Shown here: in pieces, positions 9,848 to 27,573 of the stretch
Numbering within the stretch: the stretch's first letter is position 1
Layout of the letters: every line of letters starts with the position of its first letter
Source: a bacterium
GTDB lineage: Bacteria; Oederibacteriota; PGYV01
Reading direction: 5' to 3'
DNA: 64,000 bases
NCBI GenBank assembly: GCA_029565735.1
Contig: JAKQNO010000138.1
Location: 18,195-82,194 of the forward strand
The notes under the pieces: generated by a model
The model's input: only the letters and a program-made list of their open reading frames with translations
The model's database searches: none
What the model was told of the DNA's origin: nothing
Program-made: the position numbers and the translations under genes

Positions 9848-10327
9848 TCATATTTCCAATCTCATTACCCAATCAGCCTTGTTCTGCTTTATCTTTTTAA
9901 AGCCCATCCTTTCATAAAGCCTTACTGACGGGTTTTTCATGTCCGTGCTCAGCGATAAAGCATAATAACCCTTTATATGCGCAAGGGCGGTTAATTCTTT
10001 AAGCAGCAGCGTGCCTATACCCCTGTTTCTGAATTCTTTTCTTACAGCCACGGAAATCTCCGGAATTCCCGCTTCAACAAAACCATACCCTTTATCATTT
10101 TCCGGGAATAGAATATACCACGCCGCGCCTGCAGGTTTATCATTATCAAGTGCTATGACTCCCCCGCCATATGGCATAATGTATCTGACGTACCTGTTTA
10201 TTTCCGGAATCTTTAAAAGTTCGGCCGGCGGGGGTTTTAAAGATGGATCTTCAAAAAACACCATTTCATAAAGCATCTCTTCAAGAAACGCGTAATCGCT
10301 CCCCTGAATCTCCCTGATATTAATCAA
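9848..10327 (-). CDS. GNAT family N-acetyltransferase
   Basis: Acetyl-CoA binding motif RNRGIGTLLL (Q/RxxGxG/A). Size 159 aa. Confidence 0.75.
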   Translation of the reverse strand: MINIREIQGSDYAFLEEMLYEMVFFEDPSLKPPPAELLKIPEINRYVRYIMPYGGGVIALDNDKPAGAAWYILFPENDKGYGFVEAGIPEISVAVRKEFRNRGIGTLLLKELTALAHIKGYYALSLSTDMKNPSVRLYERMGFKKIKQNKADWVMRLEI

Positions 10328-10504
10328 ATCATCACCTGCTATTCTAAAATATGGCGTAACAAAAGCATCTCTGCTAATCAGCTAACCGGTTTGAACACAG
10401 CGCGGCTGCCGGAAATATATAAACAAACCATACGGCGTAAACTGAAAAAATATACCAGGTTCCCGTAAAACGTATGGACGGAACAAAACATAAATACCCG
10501 AAAA

Positions 10505-10540
10505 ATATAAAAGGGGCGGAAATATCCGCCCCTTTTATTT
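10505..10540 (-). terminator. Rho-independent terminator downstream of the RND pump gene
   Basis: Hairpin GGGGCGGATATTTCCGCCCC followed by TTTTATATTTTT on the minus strand. Confidence 0.5.
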
Positions 10541-10553
10541 AGCCCTCAAAAAA

Positions 10554-13500
10554 TCAGCTGTGCTGATTTTCCGCCTCTTCTTTTAACATTTTCTTTTCTT
10601 TCCTCTTTAACATCTTGTTTTCCACCCACTCATAAACAACAGGCACAACAACAAGCGTTAAGAAAGTGGATGTGATAAGCCCGCCGATGACCACTATTGC
10701 CAGCGACTCATTCCCTTTTGCCCCTTCACCCATTGACAGCGCTATGGGAAGCATACCGAATATCATGGCAAACGACGTCATAAGAATAGGCCTTAAACGT
10801 ATAGGCGCGGCGTGCAGCAGCGCTTCCCTGATATCCATTCCTTCTTCGCGCTTTTTATTTGTAAAATCAAGAAGCAGAATCCCGTTTTTGGCTACAAGTC
10901 CCAATACCATAAGAAGCCCGATAAACGCGAACATATCAAGCTGATATCCGGTTATCAGTATCCCGATAAAGGCTCCGATTATGGCAAGCGGAATTGAAGT
11001 CATAAGGATAAGCGGCTGTATAAACGAATTGTACAGGGACGCCAGTATCATATACATAAACAGCACGGCAAGAAGCATCGCGCCGCCCATCTGTACTACA
11101 AGCTCGCCAAACTGCTCGCTTTGCCCGCCGAATGTATATCTGTACCCCGAAGGCAGTTTAAGCTCTTCTTTAAGCCTTTTTTGAATCTTGCCGTTAACTT
11201 CAATGACGGAATAACCCGGCGCAAGAGAAGCCGTTACAATCACGTTTCTCATCTTGTCTTCCCTGCGTATTTCAACAGGGCCCGCGTAGTATTTAAAAGT
11301 ACAGACAGAACTTAACGGTATCTTTTTACCCATCCTGTTTGTCAGAATCATATTTCTGATGTCATCCGTCATCCTTTTGTTGGACTCATTCAGTTCAATA
11401 TTGATATTATATTCTTTTTCATCTTTCCTGAACGTGGAAATATCCGAACCTGATACAAGGGCCCTTAACGTGGAGCCCACTTCGTATACCGACATCCCAA
11501 GTTTTTCAGCTTTTACAGGGTCAACTGAAATTACCATTTCAGGTTTCCCCGGTTTGTAGGATATGTCCGTAGACGCGGTTCCGGGCGTTTCTTCTATCAT
11601 CTTTTTTATCTTCCCGGAATATTCAGCAAGCACTTTTAAGTCATCGCCGAAAATTTTCACAAGAATCGGGGTGCTCATTTCATCGTTGCCGCTCATTTTG
11701 CCGCCCATTCCCTGCGAAACAGTGACATTCATAAACACGTCAATCCTGTTATCCTTTACGTATTTCATTACTTTCTGTATAAACTGTTCGTTTGAAACCT
11801 TTCTTTCGGTCACCGGCAGAAGCGAAATCATTATGGAACCGGTATTGCTTCCGCCCGCGCCGCCAAAACCCGTGCCCGTATCGCCGATGCTGGCAAAATA
11901 AGTCTGTACTTCTTTCTGCTGGACTATAAATTTTTCCACTTCAAGCATGTATCCGTCTATTTTTTGAACAGGCGCGCCGGGATAAGTCTGCATGCTCAGA
12001 TTTACAATATTAATGTTCTGATTCATAAAACCCATCTTCATGAAGGGCAATAACATAAAGCTTCCCACAAAAAGCAGTACCGTCGTTATTAATACCGCTT
12101 TTTTTCTGTTAAGCGCCCAGTGCAGTATTTCGCCATAAACCCTGTTGCCTTCATCATATATCTGATTCCATTTTTTTGTAATTCCGTCCATGAATTTTGA
12201 AAAACCTTTTTTATCCGCGCTTTCCTTCTCTTTCTTATACCAGTACGCGGATAACATGGGCGCCGTTGTAAACGCGTCCAGAAGGGATATTGCAAGGGCA
12301 AAAGCTACCGTAAATCCAAACTGTTTGAAGAACTGCCCTATTACGCCGGTTAAAAACGATATAGGTAAAAAAACAGCCATAATAGAAAGGGTTGTAGATA
12401 TAACCGAAAGTGCCACTTCATTGGTCCCCTTTTCAGCCGCTTCCTTGGGAGGCATGCCCAATTCTATATGCCTGAAAATATTTTCGCGCACAACTATAGA
12501 GTCATCTATAAGAAGCCCGACCGCAAGTGATAATGACAGAAGTGTAATGACGTTAATGGAAAACCCGGACAGTGATATCAGGAAGAAAGCGCCGATAATG
12601 GAATTCGGAAGCGCAATCGCCGTAATAATGGCGGACCTGAAATTGCCCAGAAACAGCCACACTATAAGAAGCGCAAGTACGGCGCCTAAGACAATATTTT
12701 CCTGAACTCCCGAAACACTTTTCTTAATTCTTATGGTTGTATCAATAATGGTCTTTATCTTAATATCGGCCGGAAGCTCTTTTAAAGTTTTAGCTATCTG
12801 TTTAGTGACCTTATCCGCCGTCTCTACCGAATTGACGCCGCTCTGTTTAAATACAGCCATGAGCACCGCGGGCTTTGTATTTACCCTTAATTTGCCGGTT
12901 TCTTTCTGAAGAGTCCATTCAACTTTTGCAATGTCCTTAAGCCTTACGATTTTGCCGGTTGTGGAAGATACAGGCAGAAGCCCTATTTCATCAATTGTTT
13001 TAAATTCACCTATGACCCTTATAGCCATATTTTTTTCAACGCCATCAATATCGCCGACCGGATAGCTTAAATTTCTGGCTTTAATCGCCCCGCTTATCTG
13101 GTTCATATTAAGGCCGTTTGCCTGTAAAAGCGCCTTGTTAACCGTTACTTTGACAACCTTTTCCCTGCCGCCAAAAACATAAACCGCGGCCACGCCCTGC
13201 GTCTGCTCTATGGCAGGCTTCATTACGTCTTCCATTATTTCCTGGAGCATGGTCTGATCGCGGTCCGCTTCAATGGAGTAGAAAGCAATGGGGATGTCGC
13301 TTAACGAGAAACTCTGAATTATGGGATCCTGTATATCTTCGGGAAGGAACGACTTAATTCCGTCCACTTTTTCCCTGACTTTCTGTTCCGCGTATTTCAC
13401 TTCCACGCCAAGTTTAAAAGAAGCGGTTATAACGGCCAGATTTTCCCTTGCCACGGCATTTATGGTGTCAATGCCTTCAAGGGTGGCAAGCTGCTCTTCC

Positions 13501-13742: not shown

Positions 13743-14744
13743 TTACTTCTTTTCCGGCTGTACCGGAGTTTCTTCTTTTTTAGCGGCGCTTTTTTTATCT
13801 TCTTTCCCGCCCTTTACATCAGCCGCCGGTTTGGCCGGCTCATTCCCGGTGCTTATTAAAACCCCGTCAGACAGTTTAAACGTTCCGTCAGTTATAACTT
13901 CCGTGCCTGCCGCAAGCCCGTCGCCGGAAATTTCTATCATATCTTTGTTCCTGTATCCCGCTTTAACGGTTGTCTGTTTTGCTTTGCCTTCCACGGCCGT
14001 AAATATATAATCGCCGCTTTCCGTCATTATCACGGCTTTTTCCGGAACCATAAAACCCTTTATATCTTCAAGCAGTATTTCCGCGTTGACAGACATTCCA
14101 AGTTTTAATTTATTCCCGGTATTTGGAGCTTTAACCACAATGGTGCCTGACATAATATCGCTGTCAATCACAGGCGGAACAGAATATACTTCCCCCCGGA
14201 CGGAAAGCGACGCGTCTTCCACAAATGATATTATCGCCTTTTGCCCTTTTTTGATTTTAACAAGGTCTTCCTGCCCGGCATTAAAAACAAGTTTTACCTT
14301 TGAAGGGTCCGCTATTTCCGCGACCGGCATTGCCGGGCTTACAGCTTCGCCCCTGTCTATGCAGTAAAGTTTTGTAACCATTCCGCCCACAGGCGCGGTT
14401 ACAGGCGCAAGTTCATACTGGTATCCGACCATGTCCCTGTCAATGTAGACAAGCACATCCCCTTTATTCACATAACTTCCTTCAGCCACGGCATTTCTTG
14501 AAAACTTGCCCGGCACTATAGGAAACACTTTCACCTGCGGGTCCCCTTCAATTACCCCCTGCACTGCAAAATATTTGGCAATCTGCCTTGTTTCAAGTTT
14601 AACGGTCGCTACGTTATAAACAAGCTCCGCCGGTTTTTTTCCGCCTTTCGCTATGCTCTGTCCAATCCTGAAAATTATCAGCACGGCAATGATTATAAGC
14701 GTAATCTTTAAAACATTCTTAAGCAGGTTTCTTGTCTTGTCCAT
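13743..14744 (-). CDS. RND efflux periplasmic adaptor (membrane fusion protein, HlyD/AcrA family)
   Basis: N-terminal TM anchor, lipoyl/beta-barrel-type MFP organisation, Lys-rich tail. Operon position between TolC-like and RND. Confidence 0.8.
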   Translation of the reverse strand: MDKTRNLLKNVLKITLIIIAVLIIFRIGQSIAKGGKKPAELVYNVATVKLETRQIAKYFAVQGVIEGDPQVKVFPIVPGKFSRNAVAEGSYVNKGDVLVYIDRDMVGYQYELAPVTAPVGGMVTKLYCIDRGEAVSPAMPVAEIADPSKVKLVFNAGQEDLVKIKKGQKAIISFVEDASLSVRGEVYSVPPVIDSDIMSGTIVVKAPNTGNKLKLGMSVNAEILLEDIKGFMVPEKAVIMTESGDYIFTAVEGKAKQTTVKAGYRNKDMIEISGDGLAAGTEVITDGTFKLSDGVLISTGNEPAKPAADVKGGKEDKKSAAKKEETPVQPEKK

Positions 14745-14761
14745 TTATTTTCTCCCGTGTT

Positions 14762-16051
14762 TTATTCTATGAAATTTTTAAGTTTCTGCATTGATGTAAG
14801 GTAATTATTTAACGCGTTATAATAGTTTGTCTTTGCCCTCATTAGCCCTATTTCCGCGTTCATAAGGTCAACGCTCTGAATCAGGCCGTTTTTGTAGCTT
14901 TCTGACGCTATCCTGTACCCTTCTTCCGCCTGCTTTATCAGGTCCCCGGCCGCTTCAATCACTTCTGCGCTTTCTTCCATCCCTGTGTAAAGCTGGTCAA
15001 GCTGTATTTCAAGCAGGTTTACCGTGTTTTCCTTTGTAAGATTCTGCTTTGCTTCCTGCGCTGCAGCTTCTTTAAATGCGTAGACGTTTTTGAAACCGTT
15101 GAAAAAAGTCCACTGCAATCCGACCATGACATCCCACATTCCGTACCAGTAACTTTTTTCGCTGTGAAAAGCGGAATCAGCGGAAATGTAACTGTAGTTT
15201 GCCGCCAGGGCTATATTGGGCAGAAACATCGCGCCGGTAAGATATTTTTTGTACTCGGATATCCTTGAGGCGGATTCAATAAGTTCCCTGTCATCGCTTT
15301 TTTCCCTGAATTTATTTTTTATGTCATCCGCTGTCAGTTCAAGTTTTTTATAATCAGGCTCTCCGGTCAGTTCAACTTCCCGGTCAAGGCTGATGCCCGC
15401 CGTGTTTTTAAGCATCTGCATTGAAAGCAGGTATGTGTCTTCCGCTTTTCTTGCGTCAGGTTTTGAATTAGCGTACTGAACCTGTGCCTGAAGCACTTCA
15501 AAGTTGGAAGCCTGCCCGCTTTTGTACTTTGCCTGAGTAATCCTGTAGTATTCTTCATTGCTCTTTAAGCTCTGCTTTCCGGCGTTCATAAGTTCTTTTG
15601 TTATAAGGGCCCCGTAATAAGCCGATATAACATCAAGATCAAGTTTTTCTTTTGCTTTTTTATAGCTGATAGACGCTATTTTGTAAGCCTCTTCCGCCAT
15701 TTTAAAGCCAAAAACCGTTTTCCCGAACGTAAACACAGGCTGCTGAAGCGAAACCTGCGCTGCGTACCACGGCCTCATCGGCATCGTTGAAAAAGTATTG
15801 TAAACAGCCTGATAGCCGCCTGAAAGCGAAACCGACGGCCCAAAAGACGCGGCCGCCTGGCCAAGCTGAGCTTCGGCTATTTCTTTGTCAAGCTGCGCCA
15901 TCTTAAATTCCCTGTTATTGTCAGCGCACATTTTCGCGAAATCTTCAAAAGAAAGTGTTAACACAGTCTCTTCCGCGTAAACAGCCGCTGATAGAAACAC
16001 GGATACTAAAAGAACCATAAAATATCTGATTAAATTCATTGGTCTCATCAC
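14762..16051 (-). CDS. TolC-like outer membrane efflux protein
   Basis: Signal peptide, two-repeat coiled-coil/barrel organisation of ~430 aa, operon context. Confidence 0.75.
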   Translation of the reverse strand: MMRPMNLIRYFMVLLVSVFLSAAVYAEETVLTLSFEDFAKMCADNNREFKMAQLDKEIAEAQLGQAAASFGPSVSLSGGYQAVYNTFSTMPMRPWYAAQVSLQQPVFTFGKTVFGFKMAEEAYKIASISYKKAKEKLDLDVISAYYGALITKELMNAGKQSLKSNEEYYRITQAKYKSGQASNFEVLQAQVQYANSKPDARKAEDTYLLSMQMLKNTAGISLDREVELTGEPDYKKLELTADDIKNKFREKSDDRELIESASRISEYKKYLTGAMFLPNIALAANYSYISADSAFHSEKSYWYGMWDVMVGLQWTFFNGFKNVYAFKEAAAQEAKQNLTKENTVNLLEIQLDQLYTGMEESAEVIEAAGDLIKQAEEGYRIASESYKNGLIQSVDLMNAEIGLMRAKTNYYNALNNYLTSMQKLKNFIE

Positions 16052-16058
16052 GGCCTCC

Positions 16059-16628
16059 TTAATAATATATTTTCCAGGCTGCGCCTGTTTTTACAGTGTG
16101 AATTTCTTTTTCATTAACATCATAAAAAGCCGGCCTTTCAATGCTTAACCTTAGAACAGCAATATCTGCCACGTTTAAGTTAACACCGATACCAAAATTG
16201 TAATAGCCGCCGGTCCAGCTTATGTCCTTATAATACATAGGCGGCATAGCAGCATCGTACATATGCATACTGCCAAGGGTCATTCCGGTTTCAAAAAACA
16301 AATCCGGAAATACCGGCCATTCAGGGAAAATATTGCCGCGGATACCCGCGTAAAGCGGCGCGTATACCGCGCAGGAATTTGAATCCTGCCTGGCTACAAA
16401 CACGTTATATGAACCGCCCAGATATGCTTCACCCCATTTAAATACGGATACTCCCGCTTTCGCGTCAAAGACCGGGGTGTCAAATACACCGTAGCCTTCC
16501 AGCATCCTGCTCTGCGGACCTGTTACAGTTCCGTAATTTAGGCCAAATTCCGTAAACACCCACTTTTCCGCCTTTACAGGAAAAGCGATAAACAGCAGCA
16601 CCACCAATAAAGCAGATAATTTTTTCAT
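16059..16628 (-). CDS. Small outer-membrane beta-barrel protein (OmpW/OmpA-like barrel)
   Basis: Signal peptide, alternating amphipathic beta-strands, C-terminal aromatic residues (WKIYY). Confidence 0.4.
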   Translation of the reverse strand: MKKLSALLVVLLFIAFPVKAEKWVFTEFGLNYGTVTGPQSRMLEGYGVFDTPVFDAKAGVSVFKWGEAYLGGSYNVFVARQDSNSCAVYAPLYAGIRGNIFPEWPVFPDLFFETGMTLGSMHMYDAAMPPMYYKDISWTGGYYNFGIGVNLNVADIAVLRLSIERPAFYDVNEKEIHTVKTGAAWKIYY

Positions 16629-19271: not shown

Positions 19272-19347
19272 TTACTTTCCTCCTGCAGTCCATATATAAG
19301 AATACAGCGGGCGCCGTATTCCTTCCCGCTTGTTAACACAGCAAGGG

Positions 19348-19375
19348 ATTATATCAGAAATGGCGCAGTTTTCAA
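19348..19375 (-). promoter_or_regulatory. Extended -10 sigma70 promoter (TTGAAA-N16-TGaTATAAT) for the GT2 gene
   Basis: Minus strand TTGAAAactgcgccatttcTGATATAAT, located ~75 nt upstream of the GT2 ATG. The GT2 start has AGGAGG as SD. Confidence 0.4.
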
Positions 19376-19395
19376 GGGGAAAATCTTTAAAGGCG

Positions 19396-19424
19396 GCAGC
19401 TTGGCAGCTTGGCAGCTTGGCAGC
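19396..19424. repeat. Tandem octamer microsatellite (GCAGCTTG)x3.5
   Basis: Sequence ggcagcttggcagcttggcagcttggcagc is read directly. It lies within a GC-rich 350-bp non-coding spacer. Confidence 0.6.
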
Positions 19425-19732
19425 TCGGAAAGACAAAAAGACAAAACACGAGGGACAGAGGTTCGGATACACGGTTGGAGCGAGCCTGCGAAGCGGAAAT
19501 CCCCGGGCTTGCGCGAGTTTACAAGCGCAAGTGTTAGGGGAAGGGACGGAAGTAAAAACAACTTCAATTGCCGCGCCCTGAAGGGTGCGCCTGCCAATAC
19601 ATTTTATTTTTACGTATTGGTAGCCGCGCCTTTTAAGGCGCGTTGTTTAAATCAAATCCTTAACTGCCGCAGGATAATACCCTCGCCTGCCAAGTCTAAA
19701 CCGTACCGCGAACCGCTGAGCCGCGTTATTTC

Positions 19733-20050
19733 TTATTTTTTATGCCAGCACAAATGCATATTCATACTTTGTCCCATTTTAGCAATTGTATTCACTTCCG
19801 CGTTGGGCGCGCCGTTCAGTATCCGTTTAACGACCTGCGGCCTTATTCCGGCTTTTTTCGCCAGTGCGTAAGGCGTAATTTTTTCTTTTACAAGCTCTTT
19901 ATTCAAACCTTCCACAAGGTGAAGCATTATCTCTTCGTCATAGCCTTTACTCGCGTTAGCGCTCTTTTCTATCAGTTTATCAAAGTATTTTTCCGGATTT
20001 GTTCCGTATACTTTTATTTTTCCAGCTTTGCCCACATATGTTTTTTTCAT
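19733..20050 (-). CDS. HTH (XRE-type) DNA-binding protein, HigA-like antitoxin candidate
   Basis: C-terminal HTH LAKKAGIRPQVVKRILNG. Encoded 11 nt downstream of a Gp49/HigB-like gene (toxin-first order). Confidence 0.5.
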   Translation of the reverse strand: MKKTYVGKAGKIKVYGTNPEKYFDKLIEKSANASKGYDEEIMLHLVEGLNKELVKEKITPYALAKKAGIRPQVVKRILNGAPNAEVNTIAKMGQSMNMHLCWHKK

Positions 20051-20061
20051 AATTATTCCTC

Positions 20062-20427
20062 CTATAATCTATTTCCGGATTTAGCCTTGAAATATCTTTT
20101 CATACGTTGTTCCGAAACCAACAAAGCTTCCAAAGGCGTCTTTTGGCTTTTCTTAATAATACCATGCACAAACCATGCCGTATCACCGTCCCAAAAGTAG
20201 AACAGCCTGATTTCTGTTTTTCCAAAACTTGGCCGCAATTCATAGATGCTTCCATTAAGTTTTTTTGCGTAAGGTTCCCTTATCATGGGGCCTCTTGTTT
20301 TTATCAAATCAAGATAATACTTAACCTTCCCCTGCTCTTTTTCGCTTAATTTAATCAAAAAATCCATGGCAAAACATTTATTTCCTTCCGTATAAAAAAC
20401 ATAATTGTATTCACCCACGTAAAACAC
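20062..20427 (-). CDS. Gp49-like (DUF891) RelE/ParE-superfamily protein, HigB-like toxin candidate
   Basis: ~120 aa. Pattern YELRPSFGKTEIRLFYFWDG...FVHGIIKKSQKTP is typical of phage Gp49/HigB-like toxins. Sits upstream of the HTH partner. Confidence 0.5.
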   Translation of the reverse strand: MFYVGEYNYVFYTEGNKCFAMDFLIKLSEKEQGKVKYYLDLIKTRGPMIREPYAKKLNGSIYELRPSFGKTEIRLFYFWDGDTAWFVHGIIKKSQKTPLEALLVSEQRMKRYFKAKSGNRL

Positions 20428-20454
20428 CCCTCTATTGTTTGTTTCTTATAAATA

Positions 20455-20483
20455 AATATAAACTTTAAAGTTCATAATGTCAA
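20455..20483 (-). promoter_or_regulatory. Sigma70-type promoter TTGACA-N17-TATATT for the TA pair
   Basis: Minus strand TTGACAttatgaactttaaagttTATATT. Inverted repeats TTAAGCAA/TTGCTTAA lie upstream and are possible operator elements. Confidence 0.35.
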
Positions 20484-20597
20484 GATTTAATTACAGGAAT
20501 TACGAAGCATTAAACCATAAACAATTAAGCAAAAGTGATACACATACATTTGTTCCGCTATGGCTTAATTGCTTAAACTATTAATACGATGTGTCCA

Positions 20598-23570
20598 TTA
20601 AAACAGAACATCCGCCTTGCTGTACGGGCAGATGTTGAAAAACGCGCAGTAGCGGCAGGTAAATGCCGCGGGTGTGGCTTCAAATTCTTCGTTCATTATA
20701 TGGCCTGCCACTTCGTGTATCTTCTCTTCGTATTCCCTGATTGTTTTTTCCTTAAAAGTCTTTGTCACAAGCATGGAACTTTTAAAGAAATACAGACCCG
20801 CTTCTTCCGGTATTTTTCCGAACATCTTTTCATACGCCAGGCAGTACAATTTAAGCTGCCTTTGAATATCCTGGCTTTTTATCTTTGTTTCGGCCTTTTC
20901 CTCGTCGCGGACATCAGAAGTTTTATAGTCCACGATTATTATCTTGCCGTCAATTTCGTCTATTCTGTCCCATCTTCCCCTTACGCCAAGTTTGTCATTA
21001 AGCTTAAATTCAAAATCTTTTTCAATATATTTCGGAATAATATTGTTTTGGCTTTCCTTGTCGTAAAAACGCTCAATGGCCTCTGCCGCGGCTTCGTAAT
21101 TTTTAATCGCTTCCTGCTGCGTTAAAAAACCCGCCGGCTTCCACATAGCGTCAAATATCTTCTTTAAATCATCCTTTGTGACTTTCCTGCCTTCCCTGCG
21201 CGCAATAAAAAATTCCGCAGACACGGCGTGCATAGCCGACCCAATCATGACATTAGGTTTGCTTCTGATGGGCATTTTAAACACGTGCACAAGTTTATAT
21301 TTAAACGGGCAGGTAAGGTAATCGTCAATCTGATAATTTGAAAGCTTAAGAAAGTCAGGTTTGGACTTCCTGCGCGCCTTTTCAAGGGCGGTTTCTTTCC
21401 TTTCAAAAAACTCAAATTTCTTAATTCTATCCGGCGTCACCGCAAAATCATCCGGAACATCAAACCCGGTTTCCTTTAAAAATACGCTTAATTTCTTTCC
21501 GCCCTTTCCGTCATACTGCCTTGCGGCCGTAAGAAAAAGCGCTTCTTTGGCCCTTGTCATCGCGACATAAAACAGGCGCCTTTCTTCTTCGTGAAAATAA
21601 GTGTCTTCATCAACTATATCATGCATAAGTGTTTCCGGGAAAGGCAGCGCGTAGTCAGCCCTTTTTCTTCCCGGAAATTTTTCCTGTATAAGCGCCGCCA
21701 CAAAAACAACCTTAAACTCAAGGCCTTTTGCCTTGTGTATGGACATCACCTGCACGGCGTCTTCTTTTACTTCAGACACAAATTCTTCCTTTGGATTCTC
21801 TCCGGATTTTATGCTTAAATCTATATAATTAACGAAATTATGAATGGTGTCGTATTTTTCATTTATGGAGAAATGTTTCATAATCTCAAAAAATCCGGAA
21901 ATGTTCGCCACTATCGCGTCCGAATCAGGCGTGTTTTCCTTAAACAGCCTGTCCAGAATTTTCTTCTGTTTTAAAAACTCAAGGACTATCTCGCCGGGCG
22001 GGATTTTTTCCGCCACCCTTGAAAGATAATGGTCAACATCCTTAATAAAACTTTTTATTTTTAACGCTTCTTTTTCCGGAATATTAAGTTCGGGGTATTT
22101 CTCGTTTTCCCTCATCATGTCAATTACCGCGGCGTTGTGCTCTTTGGCAAGGTTTCCAAGCTTGGAAATGACAAAAGGGTCAACATCATAGTGTTCGGAT
22201 ATTATTACATCCAGGACAGGGTTAAATTCATACGGGGCGGCAAGCATTCTGCAGAAGTTTATCAGAAACTGAACCTCTTTTTTATTATAAAGCCCTTCGT
22301 CACCGGAAAAAGCGTATGGTATGCCCTTTTTTTCAAAGGTCTTTAAAAACATCCGCGCGTCATTTTTTGCCCTTACAAGCACGGCAAAGTCGCTGTATTT
22401 GTAATACCCTTTGTCCACATATTGCTTTATTTCCGCCGCGGCAAAATCAGCCTCTTCGGAATAGTTTGAAAACACCTTCGCGTTAAGCCTGCTTATCCTG
22501 TGTTCAGGGGCGTATTTTGAAACCAGTTTTTTGTCCAGGTTATACTTTATTTCAAGCCTGTCTGTATTGTTCTGAATTACTTTGTGCGCCGCGTCCAGAA
22601 TCTCCTGACATGTCCTGTAGTTGTTCTTTAAAACAACCATCTCCCCGCTTCTGTAATGGTCCTTAAACCCCATAATATTGGAAATTGCCGCGCCGCGGAA
22701 ACGGTATATCATCTGGTCGTCATCGCCCACCGCGTTTATATTGCCCTGTTCTCCGGCAAGCAGTTTTATAAATTCAAACTGGGCGTAATTGGTGTCCTGA
22801 AACTCATCAATCAGTATGTATTTATATTTGTCCCTGTACTTTTTAAGGACGGATTTTTTTTCCTTAAGAAGCAGATACGGCACAAGGATAAGGTCCCCGA
22901 AGTCCATGCGGTTTTTTTCGGTCTTCAGTTTTTCGTATTCCCTGTAAAAACCCGCAAGCTCCCTGTGTTTCGCCGCAATTTCCCTGTCTTCGTCAGTTTC
23001 CGCTTTATCGGAAAAAGAGGCCGCAAAAATTTCATAGTCCTGCCACGTTATAAGGTTGTCTTTAAGTTTGGATATAAAACCCACAAGCTGGGCCAGATAC
23101 TGCCCCGGATTGTTAAGCGGCTTGTACAGATCAAGGTCAAAACAATCTATATTTTCCATGATAAGGATTACAGCGTCAGTTTCCTTTAATATTTCCCAGT
23201 CAGGGGCTATCTTTAACTCCGCGAAGTTCTCGCTTATTATCGCCTTGCCAAAGGAGTGAAAGGTTGATATCTGCGTTTCCGTCATTCCAAAAGGCACAAG
23301 TTTATCAACGCGCTCTTCCATCTCTCTTGCCGCTTTTTCAGAGAACGTAAGCGCCACAATCTGAGATGACAGCGCCTTATTTTCGCTTATCAGCCATGCT
23401 ATCCTTTCGGTTATTACCTTTGTTTTGCCGGTTCCCGCGCCCGCGACAATTAAAAGCGGGCCTTCGCCGTAGCGTATGGCTTTATCCTGCTGTTCGTCCG
23501 AAACAACACCTGATACCGCCGTAATTTCAGGCTCTGTTTTAACCTTATTTGTCTCTTTCTTAGCTGTCAA
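20598..23570 (-). CDS. Single-chain UvrD/PcrA-type SF1 helicase fused to a C-terminal Cas4/AddB-like PD-(D/E)XK nuclease with a 4-Cys (Fe-S) cluster
   Basis: Helicase motifs AGAGTGKT (Walker A), LIDEFQDTN, VGDDDQMIYRFRGA, YRTCQEIL and KAKGLEFKVVFV. C-terminal nuclease CPFKY...D...IVDYKTSD...CRYCAFFNIC. Starts with TTG and has a GGGAGAAGG SD. Confidence 0.8.
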   Translation of the reverse strand: MTAKKETNKVKTEPEITAVSGVVSDEQQDKAIRYGEGPLLIVAGAGTGKTKVITERIAWLISENKALSSQIVALTFSEKAAREMEERVDKLVPFGMTETQISTFHSFGKAIISENFAELKIAPDWEILKETDAVILIMENIDCFDLDLYKPLNNPGQYLAQLVGFISKLKDNLITWQDYEIFAASFSDKAETDEDREIAAKHRELAGFYREYEKLKTEKNRMDFGDLILVPYLLLKEKKSVLKKYRDKYKYILIDEFQDTNYAQFEFIKLLAGEQGNINAVGDDDQMIYRFRGAAISNIMGFKDHYRSGEMVVLKNNYRTCQEILDAAHKVIQNNTDRLEIKYNLDKKLVSKYAPEHRISRLNAKVFSNYSEEADFAAAEIKQYVDKGYYKYSDFAVLVRAKNDARMFLKTFEKKGIPYAFSGDEGLYNKKEVQFLINFCRMLAAPYEFNPVLDVIISEHYDVDPFVISKLGNLAKEHNAAVIDMMRENEKYPELNIPEKEALKIKSFIKDVDHYLSRVAEKIPPGEIVLEFLKQKKILDRLFKENTPDSDAIVANISGFFEIMKHFSINEKYDTIHNFVNYIDLSIKSGENPKEEFVSEVKEDAVQVMSIHKAKGLEFKVVFVAALIQEKFPGRKRADYALPFPETLMHDIVDEDTYFHEEERRLFYVAMTRAKEALFLTAARQYDGKGGKKLSVFLKETGFDVPDDFAVTPDRIKKFEFFERKETALEKARRKSKPDFLKLSNYQIDDYLTCPFKYKLVHVFKMPIRSKPNVMIGSAMHAVSAEFFIARREGRKVTKDDLKKIFDAMWKPAGFLTQQEAIKNYEAAAEAIERFYDKESQNNIIPKYIEKDFEFKLNDKLGVRGRWDRIDEIDGKIIIVDYKTSDVRDEEKAETKIKSQDIQRQLKLYCLAYEKMFGKIPEEAGLYFFKSSMLVTKTFKEKTIREYEEKIHEVAGHIMNEEFEATPAAFTCRYCAFFNICPYSKADVLF

Positions 23571-23726
23571 TTTAGCCTTCTCCCGTTATTTTTGTTTCAA
23601 ACGCCCTTGCGGATAAACCAGTATATAATACAATCCGTTTTATATAAAGCAATTGTTATGCCGTTATTTTTGATTTTAAACAAAGGTTTAAACAGGTTAT
23701 AGCCGTAAAACTGTCAGTTTGTGACA

Positions 23727-24881: not shown

Positions 24882-25235
24882 CTACTTGCCTTCGTTAATG
24901 TATTCAAAAAGCTCTGCGGTTATAAGCTTTTTGTATATCTTGCCGTATTCAGCTTTATTTTCCCAGATAACTTCGTCTATTATGTGCCTGGTATGGCTGT
25001 CTTCCTGGTCAAGAATTTCCACTTCGGCATCGTATCCGGTACGGTGTATCTTTATTACCTTTAATTCCTCAAGTTTCGCGCAGGACTCTTTAACTTTGTT
25101 TATCGGAACTTTGGTCATTTCCGATATCCTTGCGCAGCTTACAAGCCCCTGATGCCGGTGTTTATTGTAGCAGATAATCGCAAGCGCCTCGTTAGTCGAC
25201 AGTACCTGTTTTAGATCCTCGTAACTTTCCCCCAT
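24882..25235 (-). CDS. Small putative winged-helix protein, unknown function
   Basis: 117 aa with an HTH-like segment (LVSCARISEMTKVPINKVKESCAKL). Has its own strong promoter. Confidence 0.3.
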   Translation of the reverse strand: MGESYEDLKQVLSTNEALAIICYNKHRHQGLVSCARISEMTKVPINKVKESCAKLEELKVIKIHRTGYDAEVEILDQEDSHTRHIIDEVIWENKAEYGKIYKKLITAELFEYINEGK

Positions 25236-26343: not shown

Positions 26344-27573
26344 TTACTGTGTCCTGGCAAGGCGGAACCCGCATCCCCAATATTCCGTATAAGGTGCGGA
26401 AGCGTTACGAAGCCCGGTTGCCATTAAATCGACTTGGACATATCCGCTGCGGCATATGCGTGAAACCGAGTATGCGGGGCCCCTGTAGTCCGTAGAATCC
26501 CCCGGATAATCAGCCCAATTGTCCCAAACCCATTCATAAACATTGCCCGACATATCATATATATTAAGGGCATTTGGCAGTTTTCCGCCTACATCATGCG
26601 TGGTAGAGTTCATGTTAGCTGAATACCAGCAATAATCCCCGATTGTTGTTGAAGTGTCATACGGCGCGGAGTCCCCGGAAGCGTAATTTGCAGGGGTCCA
26701 GTTTGTCCCGTCAATATATCGCGCCGCAAATTCCCATTCCCCTTCTGTTGCAAGGCGGTAACCGTCGCAGTTCCAGTTAACGTAAGGATTATCCACGCTC
26801 CCTGCGGCTGCATTAACAGTGTTGCCAAACGAGCCGTCAGCTGAATTCTTTATTGGCGTTGTAAGAAGCGCGTCAGAATAATACACGGGAGTTTTTTCAT
26901 ACTTCTGGCTGTAAGCGTTGCACCAGACAATTGCGTCGCGCCAGTTAATGGTTGTAACAGGCTGAAATTGATTCGCTGACGGCGCCGATCCGAAGAATGT
27001 GGCATCCTCTCCTTCTCTGCCCGCGTTTGCAAATGTATACCCATTGCTTAAAGCCCACTGCCTTACTGTATACCAAAGTTCATAAGTTACCTGATATTTT
27101 CCAATATAAAAAGATGATATTGTATGGTCAAAACTTTGAGGCTTTTTGGAATCTGTCTGTGTAAAAGTTCCTCCGTCCACATATACAAAAACACGCGATT
27201 CTTCAGCTGTCTGTGTTACGTTTGGCGTATTTGCAGCTGTGCTGGTTAAAGTTACAGTCGGAGTACATGTAGCCGTTATTGTTATTGTGCTTGTTGCCGT
27301 AGCCGATACAATTTCCGTGGCTGTCTCTGTCTCGGTTATCGTCATCGTAGGTGTAACAGTAGATGTAGACGTAGCCGACATAATTTCCGTAACCGTGCTG
27401 GTCATGGCATTTACAGTCGTTTGCGTCGTTGTCGGTGATTGCTGTTCATTTGACACATCCGGCGATGTCGGCGAGGATTTTTTGTTACAGGATACCAACA
27501 GGACTGATACCAATACTGCTGCTGCTAAAAAAATTAAAACTCTCTTCATATAAGCCCCCTTATCAATTTGCAC
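26344..27573 (-). CDS. Lipoprotein with Thr/Ser/Ala-rich repetitive linker and C-terminal formylglycine-generating-enzyme (FGE/SUMF1) family domain
   Basis: Lipobox LVSC. ~80 aa of (T/S/A)-rich imperfect repeats. FGE-domain signatures YEWVWDNW...RICRSG...GFRLARTQ. Confidence 0.7.
   Translation of the reverse strand: MQIDKGAYMKRVLIFLAAAVLVSVLLVSCNKKSSPTSPDVSNEQQSPTTTQTTVNAMTSTVTEIMSATSTSTVTPTMTITETETATEIVSATATSTITITATCTPTVTLTSTAANTPNVTQTAEESRVFVYVDGGTFTQTDSKKPQSFDHTISSFYIGKYQVTYELWYTVRQWALSNGYTFANAGREGEDATFFGSAPSANQFQPVTTINWRDAIVWCNAYSQKYEKTPVYYSDALLTTPIKNSADGSFGNTVNAAAGSVDNPYVNWNCDGYRLATEGEWEFAARYIDGTNWTPANYASGDSAPYDTSTTIGDYCWYSANMNSTTHDVGGKLPNALNIYDMSGNVYEWVWDNWADYPGDSTDYRGPAYSVSRICRSGYVQVDLMATGLRNASAPYTEYWGCGFRLARTQ

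Follow-up and report, generated by a model that had tools for sequence, protein, structure and literature searches.

What is understood of break resection in bacteria comes from three multi-subunit machines, RecBCD, AddAB and AdnAB, and a gene that holds both motor and nuclease and stands by itself raises the question of what its product does and whether it could act alone. We followed this question at a helicase-nuclease gene on the reverse strand of a 64,000-nucleotide stretch of DNA (hereafter the window) from a bacterium of the Oederibacteriota (PGYV01; GenBank assembly GCA_029565735.1, contig JAKQNO010000138.1, positions 18,195 to 82,194). An earlier note on this DNA had described a single-polypeptide UvrD-type helicase fused to a Cas4/AddB-like nuclease, and had proposed either a minimalist end-resection enzyme or an Nhi-like anti-phage effector. 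Our analysis points to a solitary, chromosomal and vertically conserved gene that probably encodes an autonomous motor-nuclease for DNA ends or gaps. The minimalist end-resection proposal is plausible, and we give a housekeeping role in end processing about an even chance, judging from context and conservation.

One chain carries an intact motor and an iron-sulfur-type nuclease

The gene occupies positions 20598..23570 and encodes 990 amino acids (aa), from a TTG start at 23570 to a stop codon at 20598-20600; full-length orthologs at 99%, 87% and 70% identity measure 989-990 aa. Pfam matches divide the protein into a helicase half (UvrD-helicase PF00580, aa 25-306, 1e-76; UvrD_C PF13361, aa 312-684, 4e-45) and a nuclease half (PDDEXK_1 PF12705, aa 743-982, 1e-32; a weaker Cas_Cas4 PF01930 match, aa 864-981, 1e-5). 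The superfamily 1A (SF1A) UvrD/PcrA-type helicase core, with domains 1A/1B/2A/2B, spans 21471..23498 (aa 25-700), and a linker of ~42 aa (21345..21470, aa 701-742) joins it to a PD-(D/E)XK nuclease domain of the PDDEXK_1/Cas4-like type (20625..21344, aa 743-982), all on the reverse strand, as are the motifs that follow. The motor holds Walker A or motif I, AGAGTGKT (23421..23444, aa 43-50), motif II, DEFQD (22794..22808, aa 255-259), motif III, VGDDDQMIYRFRGA (22689..22730, aa 281-294), which contains F291, and the motif V region, KAKGLEFKVVFV (21699..21734, aa 613-624). In the nuclease half, the first predicted iron-sulfur (Fe-S) ligand, Cys754 (21309..21311), lies N-terminal to the nuclease core within CPFKY (aa 754-758); the catalytic core runs from GRWD (D868) to D881-Y-K883 (20922..20969; IVDYK, aa 879-883); and three C-terminal predicted ligands, C972, C975 and C981, form a CX2CX5C motif (20628..20657; CRYCAFFNIC, aa 972-981).

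These residues are conserved throughout. In an alignment of 33 homologs at 38-87% identity, the SF1A helicase motifs are invariant, motif II entirely and Walker A in all but T47 (at least 90% conserved), and every motif that the earlier note had quoted as intact is present. The nuclease residues H781, D868, D881, K883, Q905 and Y909 are invariant too, together with all four cysteines. The same invariant residues are kept in remoter fused relatives from the candidate phyla radiation (CPR), Acidobacteriota, Chloroflexia and others, the lineages that retain the catalytic and cysteine residues include Goldbacteria, Omnitrophota, Eisenbacteria and Nitrospirota, and these residues also persist in plasmid copies, among them one from an archaeal plasmid. 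Comparison with the 87%-identical ortholog gave ratios of nonsynonymous to synonymous change (dN/dS) of 0.051 for the helicase and 0.055 for the nuclease, so both domains are under purifying selection, while the linker, which is modelled with low confidence, evolves fast (proportion of nonsynonymous differences, pN, 0.21 vs 0.05-0.08 in the helicase and nuclease domains).

The nuclease domain belongs to the same iron-sulfur PD-(D/E)XK class as Cas4, ACE1, the phage 'Cas4 exonucleases', Dna2 and Bad. Its predicted model (predicted local distance difference test score, pLDDT, 84; predicted template modelling score, pTM, 0.81) has the Fe-S nuclease of AdnA as its best fold match (template modelling score, TM, 0.65-0.67), followed by ACE1 (0.6), Dna2 (0.6) and AddB (~0.55), with Cas4 also matched. 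Profile comparison with solved structures, of the kind that the earlier note had suggested for AddB, AdnB and Cas4, placed the AdnB nuclease core first (6e-9) and left AddB, ACE1 and Cas4 marginal; the Cas4 model TIGR00372 scored 42 against a cut-off of 65. In AddB, the iron staple consists of one cysteine before and three after the nuclease core and is required for DNA-end binding (PMC3378879). The 1+3 layout seen here (C754 plus C972/C975/C981) matches this published definition, bearing out the cysteine arrangement read earlier from the letters, and the four cysteines are predicted to hold an Fe-S cluster that would pin the nuclease fold.

A conserved member of the UvrD-Cas4-like family, set apart from PcrA and UvrD

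The window protein carries its domains in the order PF00580, PF13361, PF12705, PF01930, as a UvrD-Cas4-like fusion should. Hudaiberdiev et al. 2017 (PMC5704561) described this fusion as the largest branch of pfam12705, reported it to be monophyletic with a single origin and usually to co-exist with RecB, and found it either in type III restriction-modification (R-M) or Dcm-Vsr operons or stand-alone in non-conserved surroundings; in the part of the 2017 tree that we compared, Firmicutes, Fusobacteria and Brachyspira make up most of the Cas4-UvrD leaves (PMC5704561). A phylogeny, which the earlier note had proposed for the nuclease domain and which we ran on the helicase domains, separated 30 fused proteins, as a single clade, from 56 helicase-only PcrA/UvrD proteins (neighbour-joining, NJ, bootstrap 97/100). 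The clade persisted at 96/100 (NJ) once plasmid copies were added, the R-M-associated ones of Athalassotoga pATS1 and Nitrosomonas p2 and the archaeal one of Methanomethylovorans, and the window protein groups with these plasmid members. A single fused clade is in line with the reported single origin.

We therefore regard the window gene as very likely a member of the UvrD-Cas4-like family in its solitary chromosomal mode, an assignment of identity and family made from sequence. It shares with the described fusions the N-terminal UvrD-like SF1 helicase, the C-terminal Cas4-like PD-(D/E)XK nuclease, the four cysteines and an often stand-alone position. The best-described contexts of the family are the type III R-M and Dcm-Vsr operons, whereas members of the window gene's own clade, which come from Goldbacteria, Omnitrophota, KSB1, Eisenbacteria, CPR and further lineages, stand alone amid housekeeping genes. 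Comparative genomics described this architecture in 2017, so it is no novelty, and the window gene itself is an ordinary conserved member of a family already described.

That family is large. A homolog database search returned at least 7,959 matches at E <= 1e-10, the bulk of them UvrD-family helicases of any kind; among the best 120, nearly all have the same helicase-nuclease architecture, and most are ~970-1000 aa long. Searched alone, the nuclease domain matched 3,946 representatives of 50%-identity clusters at E <= 1e-3, 1,212 at 1e-10 and 109 at 1e-30, and the family extends over many poorly studied phyla, small CPR genomes among them. In almost all of the best matches the domain sits at the extreme C-terminus. 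Full-length relatives are rare on mobile elements, being present in 21 of 72,556 plasmid records and in one of the best 80 viral loci. Cas4, ACE1 and the phage exonucleases differ from the fused family in being stand-alone nucleases, and the stand-alone relatives of the nuclease domain include mycobacteriophage 'Cas4 exonucleases'.

As a separate observation, the same pairing occurs unfused in three viral contigs, where stand-alone Cas4-like nuclease open reading frames (ORFs) precede helicase-only UvrD genes by 1-2 kb (L095, 2628-3383; L102, 1134-2021; L104, 918-1883). All three nucleases retain their catalytic residues; of the four cysteines, L095 has all and the other two have at least the first three.

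The closeness of the motor to PcrA suggests a simpler reading, in which the protein is this lineage's plain PcrA/UvrD ortholog with an extra nuclease domain, serving nucleotide excision repair, mismatch repair, removal of RecA filaments and the resolution of replication-transcription conflicts. The best matches of the motor in sequence and fold are indeed PcrA, UvrD and Rep, with all SF1A motifs in common: among solved structures PcrA (1pjr) leads at 5e-85 (289 bits), ahead of AdnB at 2e-38 (135 bits) and the weaker AddA (1e-23) and RecB (6e-9), the fold is closest to PcrA/UvrD/Rep (Foldseek 2e-42, ~30% identity in the motor core), and source annotations name relatives 'PcrA'. Yet the NCBIfam equivalog cut-offs are missed widely (PcrA 429 vs 911, Rep 391 vs 951, UvrD 332 vs 1144). 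The PcrA model is matched only at positions 7-630 of 725, leaving its last ~95 positions uncovered, as are the last ~80 of the UvrD model; where PcrA/UvrD have their C-terminal region, the window protein has the linker and Fe-S-type nuclease. The fused proteins also form their own clade, and phyla that contain them (KSB1, Nitrospirota, Saccharibacteria) have helicase-only paralogs as well. One metagenome-assembled genome (L016) holds a fused gene (9992-12883) and a helicase-only UvrD/PcrA paralog of 646 aa (14339-16276) 1.4 kb apart on opposite strands, so a fused and a canonical helicase-only protein can co-exist in one genome. We thus consider it improbable that the gene is simply the PcrA/UvrD ortholog.

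The gene stands in a syntenic backbone and has no partner gene nearby

The neighbours of the gene in the window are those of a chromosomal housekeeping context: a response regulator with an HD-GYP domain, an HD protein, an ATP-binding cassette (ABC) transporter, a family 2 glycosyltransferase (GT2), DUF6544, MarR and a resistance-nodulation-division (RND) efflux system. The backbone on both sides of the fused gene is common to the 87%- and 70%-identical relatives. In remoter lineages Pfam annotation likewise shows a core-genome setting, the fused gene lying beside BamA/Lpx genes, GroEL, RecJ-S15-PNPase-FtsK or various metabolic genes.

The absence of a nearby partner subunit, noticed earlier, extends well beyond this genome. 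There is no second nuclease or helicase-like ORF in the 64-kb window, and a search with family hidden Markov models (HMMs) over six-frame ORFs at ~30 fused loci from many phyla, which reached ±8-10 kb or as far as the contig went, brought up no second nuclease ORF and a single separate helicase-only UvrD paralog, that of L016. Unbiased clustering of the flanking ORFs (±6 kb) gave no neighbour family in more than 5 of ~31 lineages and no recurrent large neighbour; the recurrent neighbours by Pfam are thiolase, peptidase M16, PheS and DnaJ. No RecC- or RecD-like gene lies near the helicase-nuclease gene. The earlier note had named degenerate catalytic residues and a cognate second subunit as the findings that would speak against its reading of the architecture; we found the residues invariant and no partner gene near any of these loci.

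One Omnitrophota locus (L005, 5460-7169) places the fused gene directly downstream of recJ, which encodes a 5'-3' exonuclease for single-stranded DNA, and upstream of rpsO-pnp-ftsK. It is a single case and may be a coincidence.

A defence role is considered and found unlikely

Several points weigh against an autonomous housekeeping enzyme. The trees are simple NJ distance trees in which long-branch effects are possible. The searchable literature holds no biochemical characterization of any UvrD-Cas4-like fusion, and all activities proposed here are for that reason drawn from homologs. Most directly, distant plasmid members of the same monophyletic family (23-26% identity) share operons with genes for a DNA methyltransferase and for a large helicase or nuclease. 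On the Athalassotoga plasmid pATS1 (L168, 5962-14730), the helicase-nuclease precedes a DNA methyltransferase and then a DEAD/DEAH helicase in an apparent operon. On Nitrosomonas eutropha p2 (L170, 5968-13554), again in an apparent operon, it is followed by a methyltransferase and a TnsA-N-domain protein of ~900 aa. Given these operons, the family can serve defence. As an aside, the Nitrosomonas arrangement differs from the classic type III Mod-Res pair.

On this basis the window gene might encode an anti-phage or anti-plasmid effector that degrades invading DNA, with Nhi- or Hna-like logic, or that works in trans with an R-M system elsewhere in the genome. The type III R-M and Dcm-Vsr contexts reported in 2017 would agree with this, as would the resemblance of the nuclease domain to the Cas4 and Druantia DruK models of PADLOC and the toxin-antitoxin (TA) module that adjoins the gene. 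The support, however, comes from distant relatives only. Neither in the window nor at the Goldbacteria, Eisenbacteria, Omnitrophota, CPR and Acidobacteriota loci is there a methyltransferase or restriction gene close by, and the R-M genes at one Nitrospirota locus (L006) are unrelated and sit in the flanks, unlike the operon arrangement of the plasmid copies. The PADLOC matches listed are generic, GajB/RTasHel for the full protein and Cas4/DruK for the nuclease. Retention in small CPR genomes and a dN/dS of 0.05 fit a core function. A defence role is therefore not supported for this gene, and we consider it unlikely.

Among individual defence systems, Nhi likewise combines nuclease and helicase activities in a single protein, but it resides on mobile defence cassettes of the staphylococcal cassette chromosome (SCC) type and is triggered by phage single-stranded DNA-binding protein, whereas the helicase-nuclease locus is syntenic backbone. 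Its domain order and helicase class also differ from those of the window protein, and no Nhi model appears among the best 25 of 60 PADLOC matches of the full protein or the 18 matches of the nuclease domain. As for Gabija, the GajB HMM matches reflect a generic UvrD, and no gene for an OLD-family GajA nuclease adjoins. No cas genes occur among the annotated neighbours, and no CRISPR array was seen near the gene.

The TA module, from which the Nhi-like role had been argued, proved to be a local feature. It is a Gp49 (HigB-like)/helix-turn-helix (HTH) pair in a variable slot (19272-20597) between the helicase-nuclease and GT2 genes, whereas the helicase-nuclease belongs to a backbone shared at 70-87% identity. 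In the 87%-identical relative (L167) the slot holds an AAA_14/DUF4143 ATPase and two small ORFs, and in L001 only a 54-aa ORF. A near-consensus promoter-like site of its own (20483-20455) serves as a candidate start for the pair, and the palindrome overlapping this site (20457-20476) may be an operator. Because syntenic relatives carry different genes in the slot, we rejected a functional link between the TA pair and the helicase-nuclease; as a local insertion, the pair says nothing about what the helicase-nuclease does.

A proposed self-sufficient motor-nuclease

Returning to the reading of an autonomous motor-nuclease, we propose that the N-terminal SF1A motor would hydrolyse ATP, move 3'-to-5' on one strand and unwind the duplex from an end, nick or gap. 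The flexible linker would tether the RecB-family nuclease, its fold pinned by the four-cysteine cluster, and the tethered nuclease would cut the single strand or strands made by the motor. The nuclease could cut the strand along which the motor tracks, as RecB/AddA/AdnB do, or the displaced 5' strand, as AdnA/AddB do; both options arise because the tether and motor resemble those of RecB, AddA and AdnB, which cut the 3' strand, and the nuclease fold resembles that of AdnA and AddB, which cut the 5' strand. The enzyme would act without a dedicated partner subunit, and its cellular job would be housekeeping processing of DNA ends or gaps in repair and recombination, with incidental degradation of linear DNA.

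Known resection machines share parts of this design. The earlier note had contrasted the single gene with AddAB and RecBCD, in which it saw these activities split over subunits; this was imprecise, since AddA, RecB, AdnA and AdnB are each already fusions of a helicase or helicase-like domain with a nuclease, and what stands is the combination of a motor of the PcrA/UvrD clade with an Fe-S-type nuclease and no partner. AddA and RecB, like the window protein, tether a C-terminal PD-(D/E)XK nuclease to an SF1A motor of known or, in the window protein, predicted 3'-5' polarity in one chain, but AddAB and RecBCD work with AddB or RecC/RecD partners and recognize Chi, and the Fe-S cluster of AddAB lies in the nuclease domain of AddB rather than AddA (PMC3378879). 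Each AdnAB subunit (1045 and 1095 aa) is of similar length to the window protein and joins a UvrD-like motor or motor-like domain to a C-terminal RecB-type nuclease. The likeness to AdnAB extends to the nuclease core, with AdnB nearest in sequence and AdnA in fold, and perhaps to the aromatic F291 in motif III, which would be equivalent to the ratchet pawl Trp325 of AdnB. In AdnAB, AdnA carries the Fe-S cluster, located at the fork through which the 5' strand is threaded, and the AdnB nuclease cuts the 3' strand (PMC13000450). AdnAB is nevertheless an obligate heterodimer with its active motor in AdnB and its Fe-S nuclease in AdnA, and the window motor is much nearer PcrA than AdnB. Dna2 places the nuclease before the helicase and has a motor of the SF1B type (5'-3'). 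Dna2 and the bacterial Bad also join an Fe-S nuclease to an SF1 helicase in one chain (PMC7430649).

That the protein is itself one subunit of an AddAB/AdnAB-type heterodimer, with its partner encoded elsewhere in the genome, is most improbable: its full-length model does align along AddA, AdnB, AdnA and AddB and its nuclease core is nearest AdnB in sequence, but AdnAB is encoded by a two-gene operon while the partner search at ~30 loci brought up no second helicase-like or nuclease ORF beyond the L016 paralog and no large neighbour that recurs. The scores also fall short of the equivalog cut-offs for AddA (208 vs 708) and RecB (174 vs 696; PRK10876, 62 vs 1697), and an active motor and an Fe-S-type nuclease, split over two subunits in AddAB and AdnAB, are here predicted in one chain.

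A homodimer that splits the two strand-cutting roles is an attractive possibility. In a more speculative version, to which we would give a small chance, the solitary clade could be a self-sufficient, possibly homodimeric machine for resecting double-strand breaks, an analogue of the AdnAB/AddAB ancestor before duplication, in which one protomer would do the 3'-5' motor work and the Fe-S nuclease of the other would cut the 5' strand; nothing that we tested speaks directly for it. If this were so, many uncultivated phyla, reduced CPR genomes among them, would rely on this protein as their main system for end resection. Should the fused enzyme resect ends alone, it would represent a fourth and simpler solution besides the three multi-subunit machines, and a tractable model for the evolution of heterodimeric ones.

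Candidate expression signals and minor features of the locus

On the reverse strand, a Shine-Dalgarno sequence, GGGAGAAGG (23576..23584), lies 5 nt upstream of the TTG start and is kept in the 87%-identical relative. The 156-bp gap to the upstream response-regulator gene holds a promoter-like site, TTTATA-17-TATACT (23620..23648, reverse strand), a consensus match whose sequence is conserved in L167; the gap contains no recognizable palindrome of an SOS box or other operator. Just past the stop codon, an imperfect 28-nt inverted repeat (20518..20575, no strand assigned) is a possible transcript end.

Three further observations concern the surroundings. The non-coding part of the variable slot contains four tandem copies of the octamer GGCAGCTT (19395-19426), beside overlapping spurious-looking ORFs. 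A 117-aa ORF without a Pfam match (24882-25235), flanked by the HD and response regulator (HD-GYP) genes, keeps its position in L167 (117 aa) and L001 (122 aa) and looks like a conserved gene of unknown function. Finally, a gene for an FGE-sulfatase-domain protein whose N-terminal region is long and rich in Thr/Ser (26344-27573) separates the HD gene from the ABC permease genes; it is missing from the syntenic position in L167 and L001, which marks it as a second local insertion.

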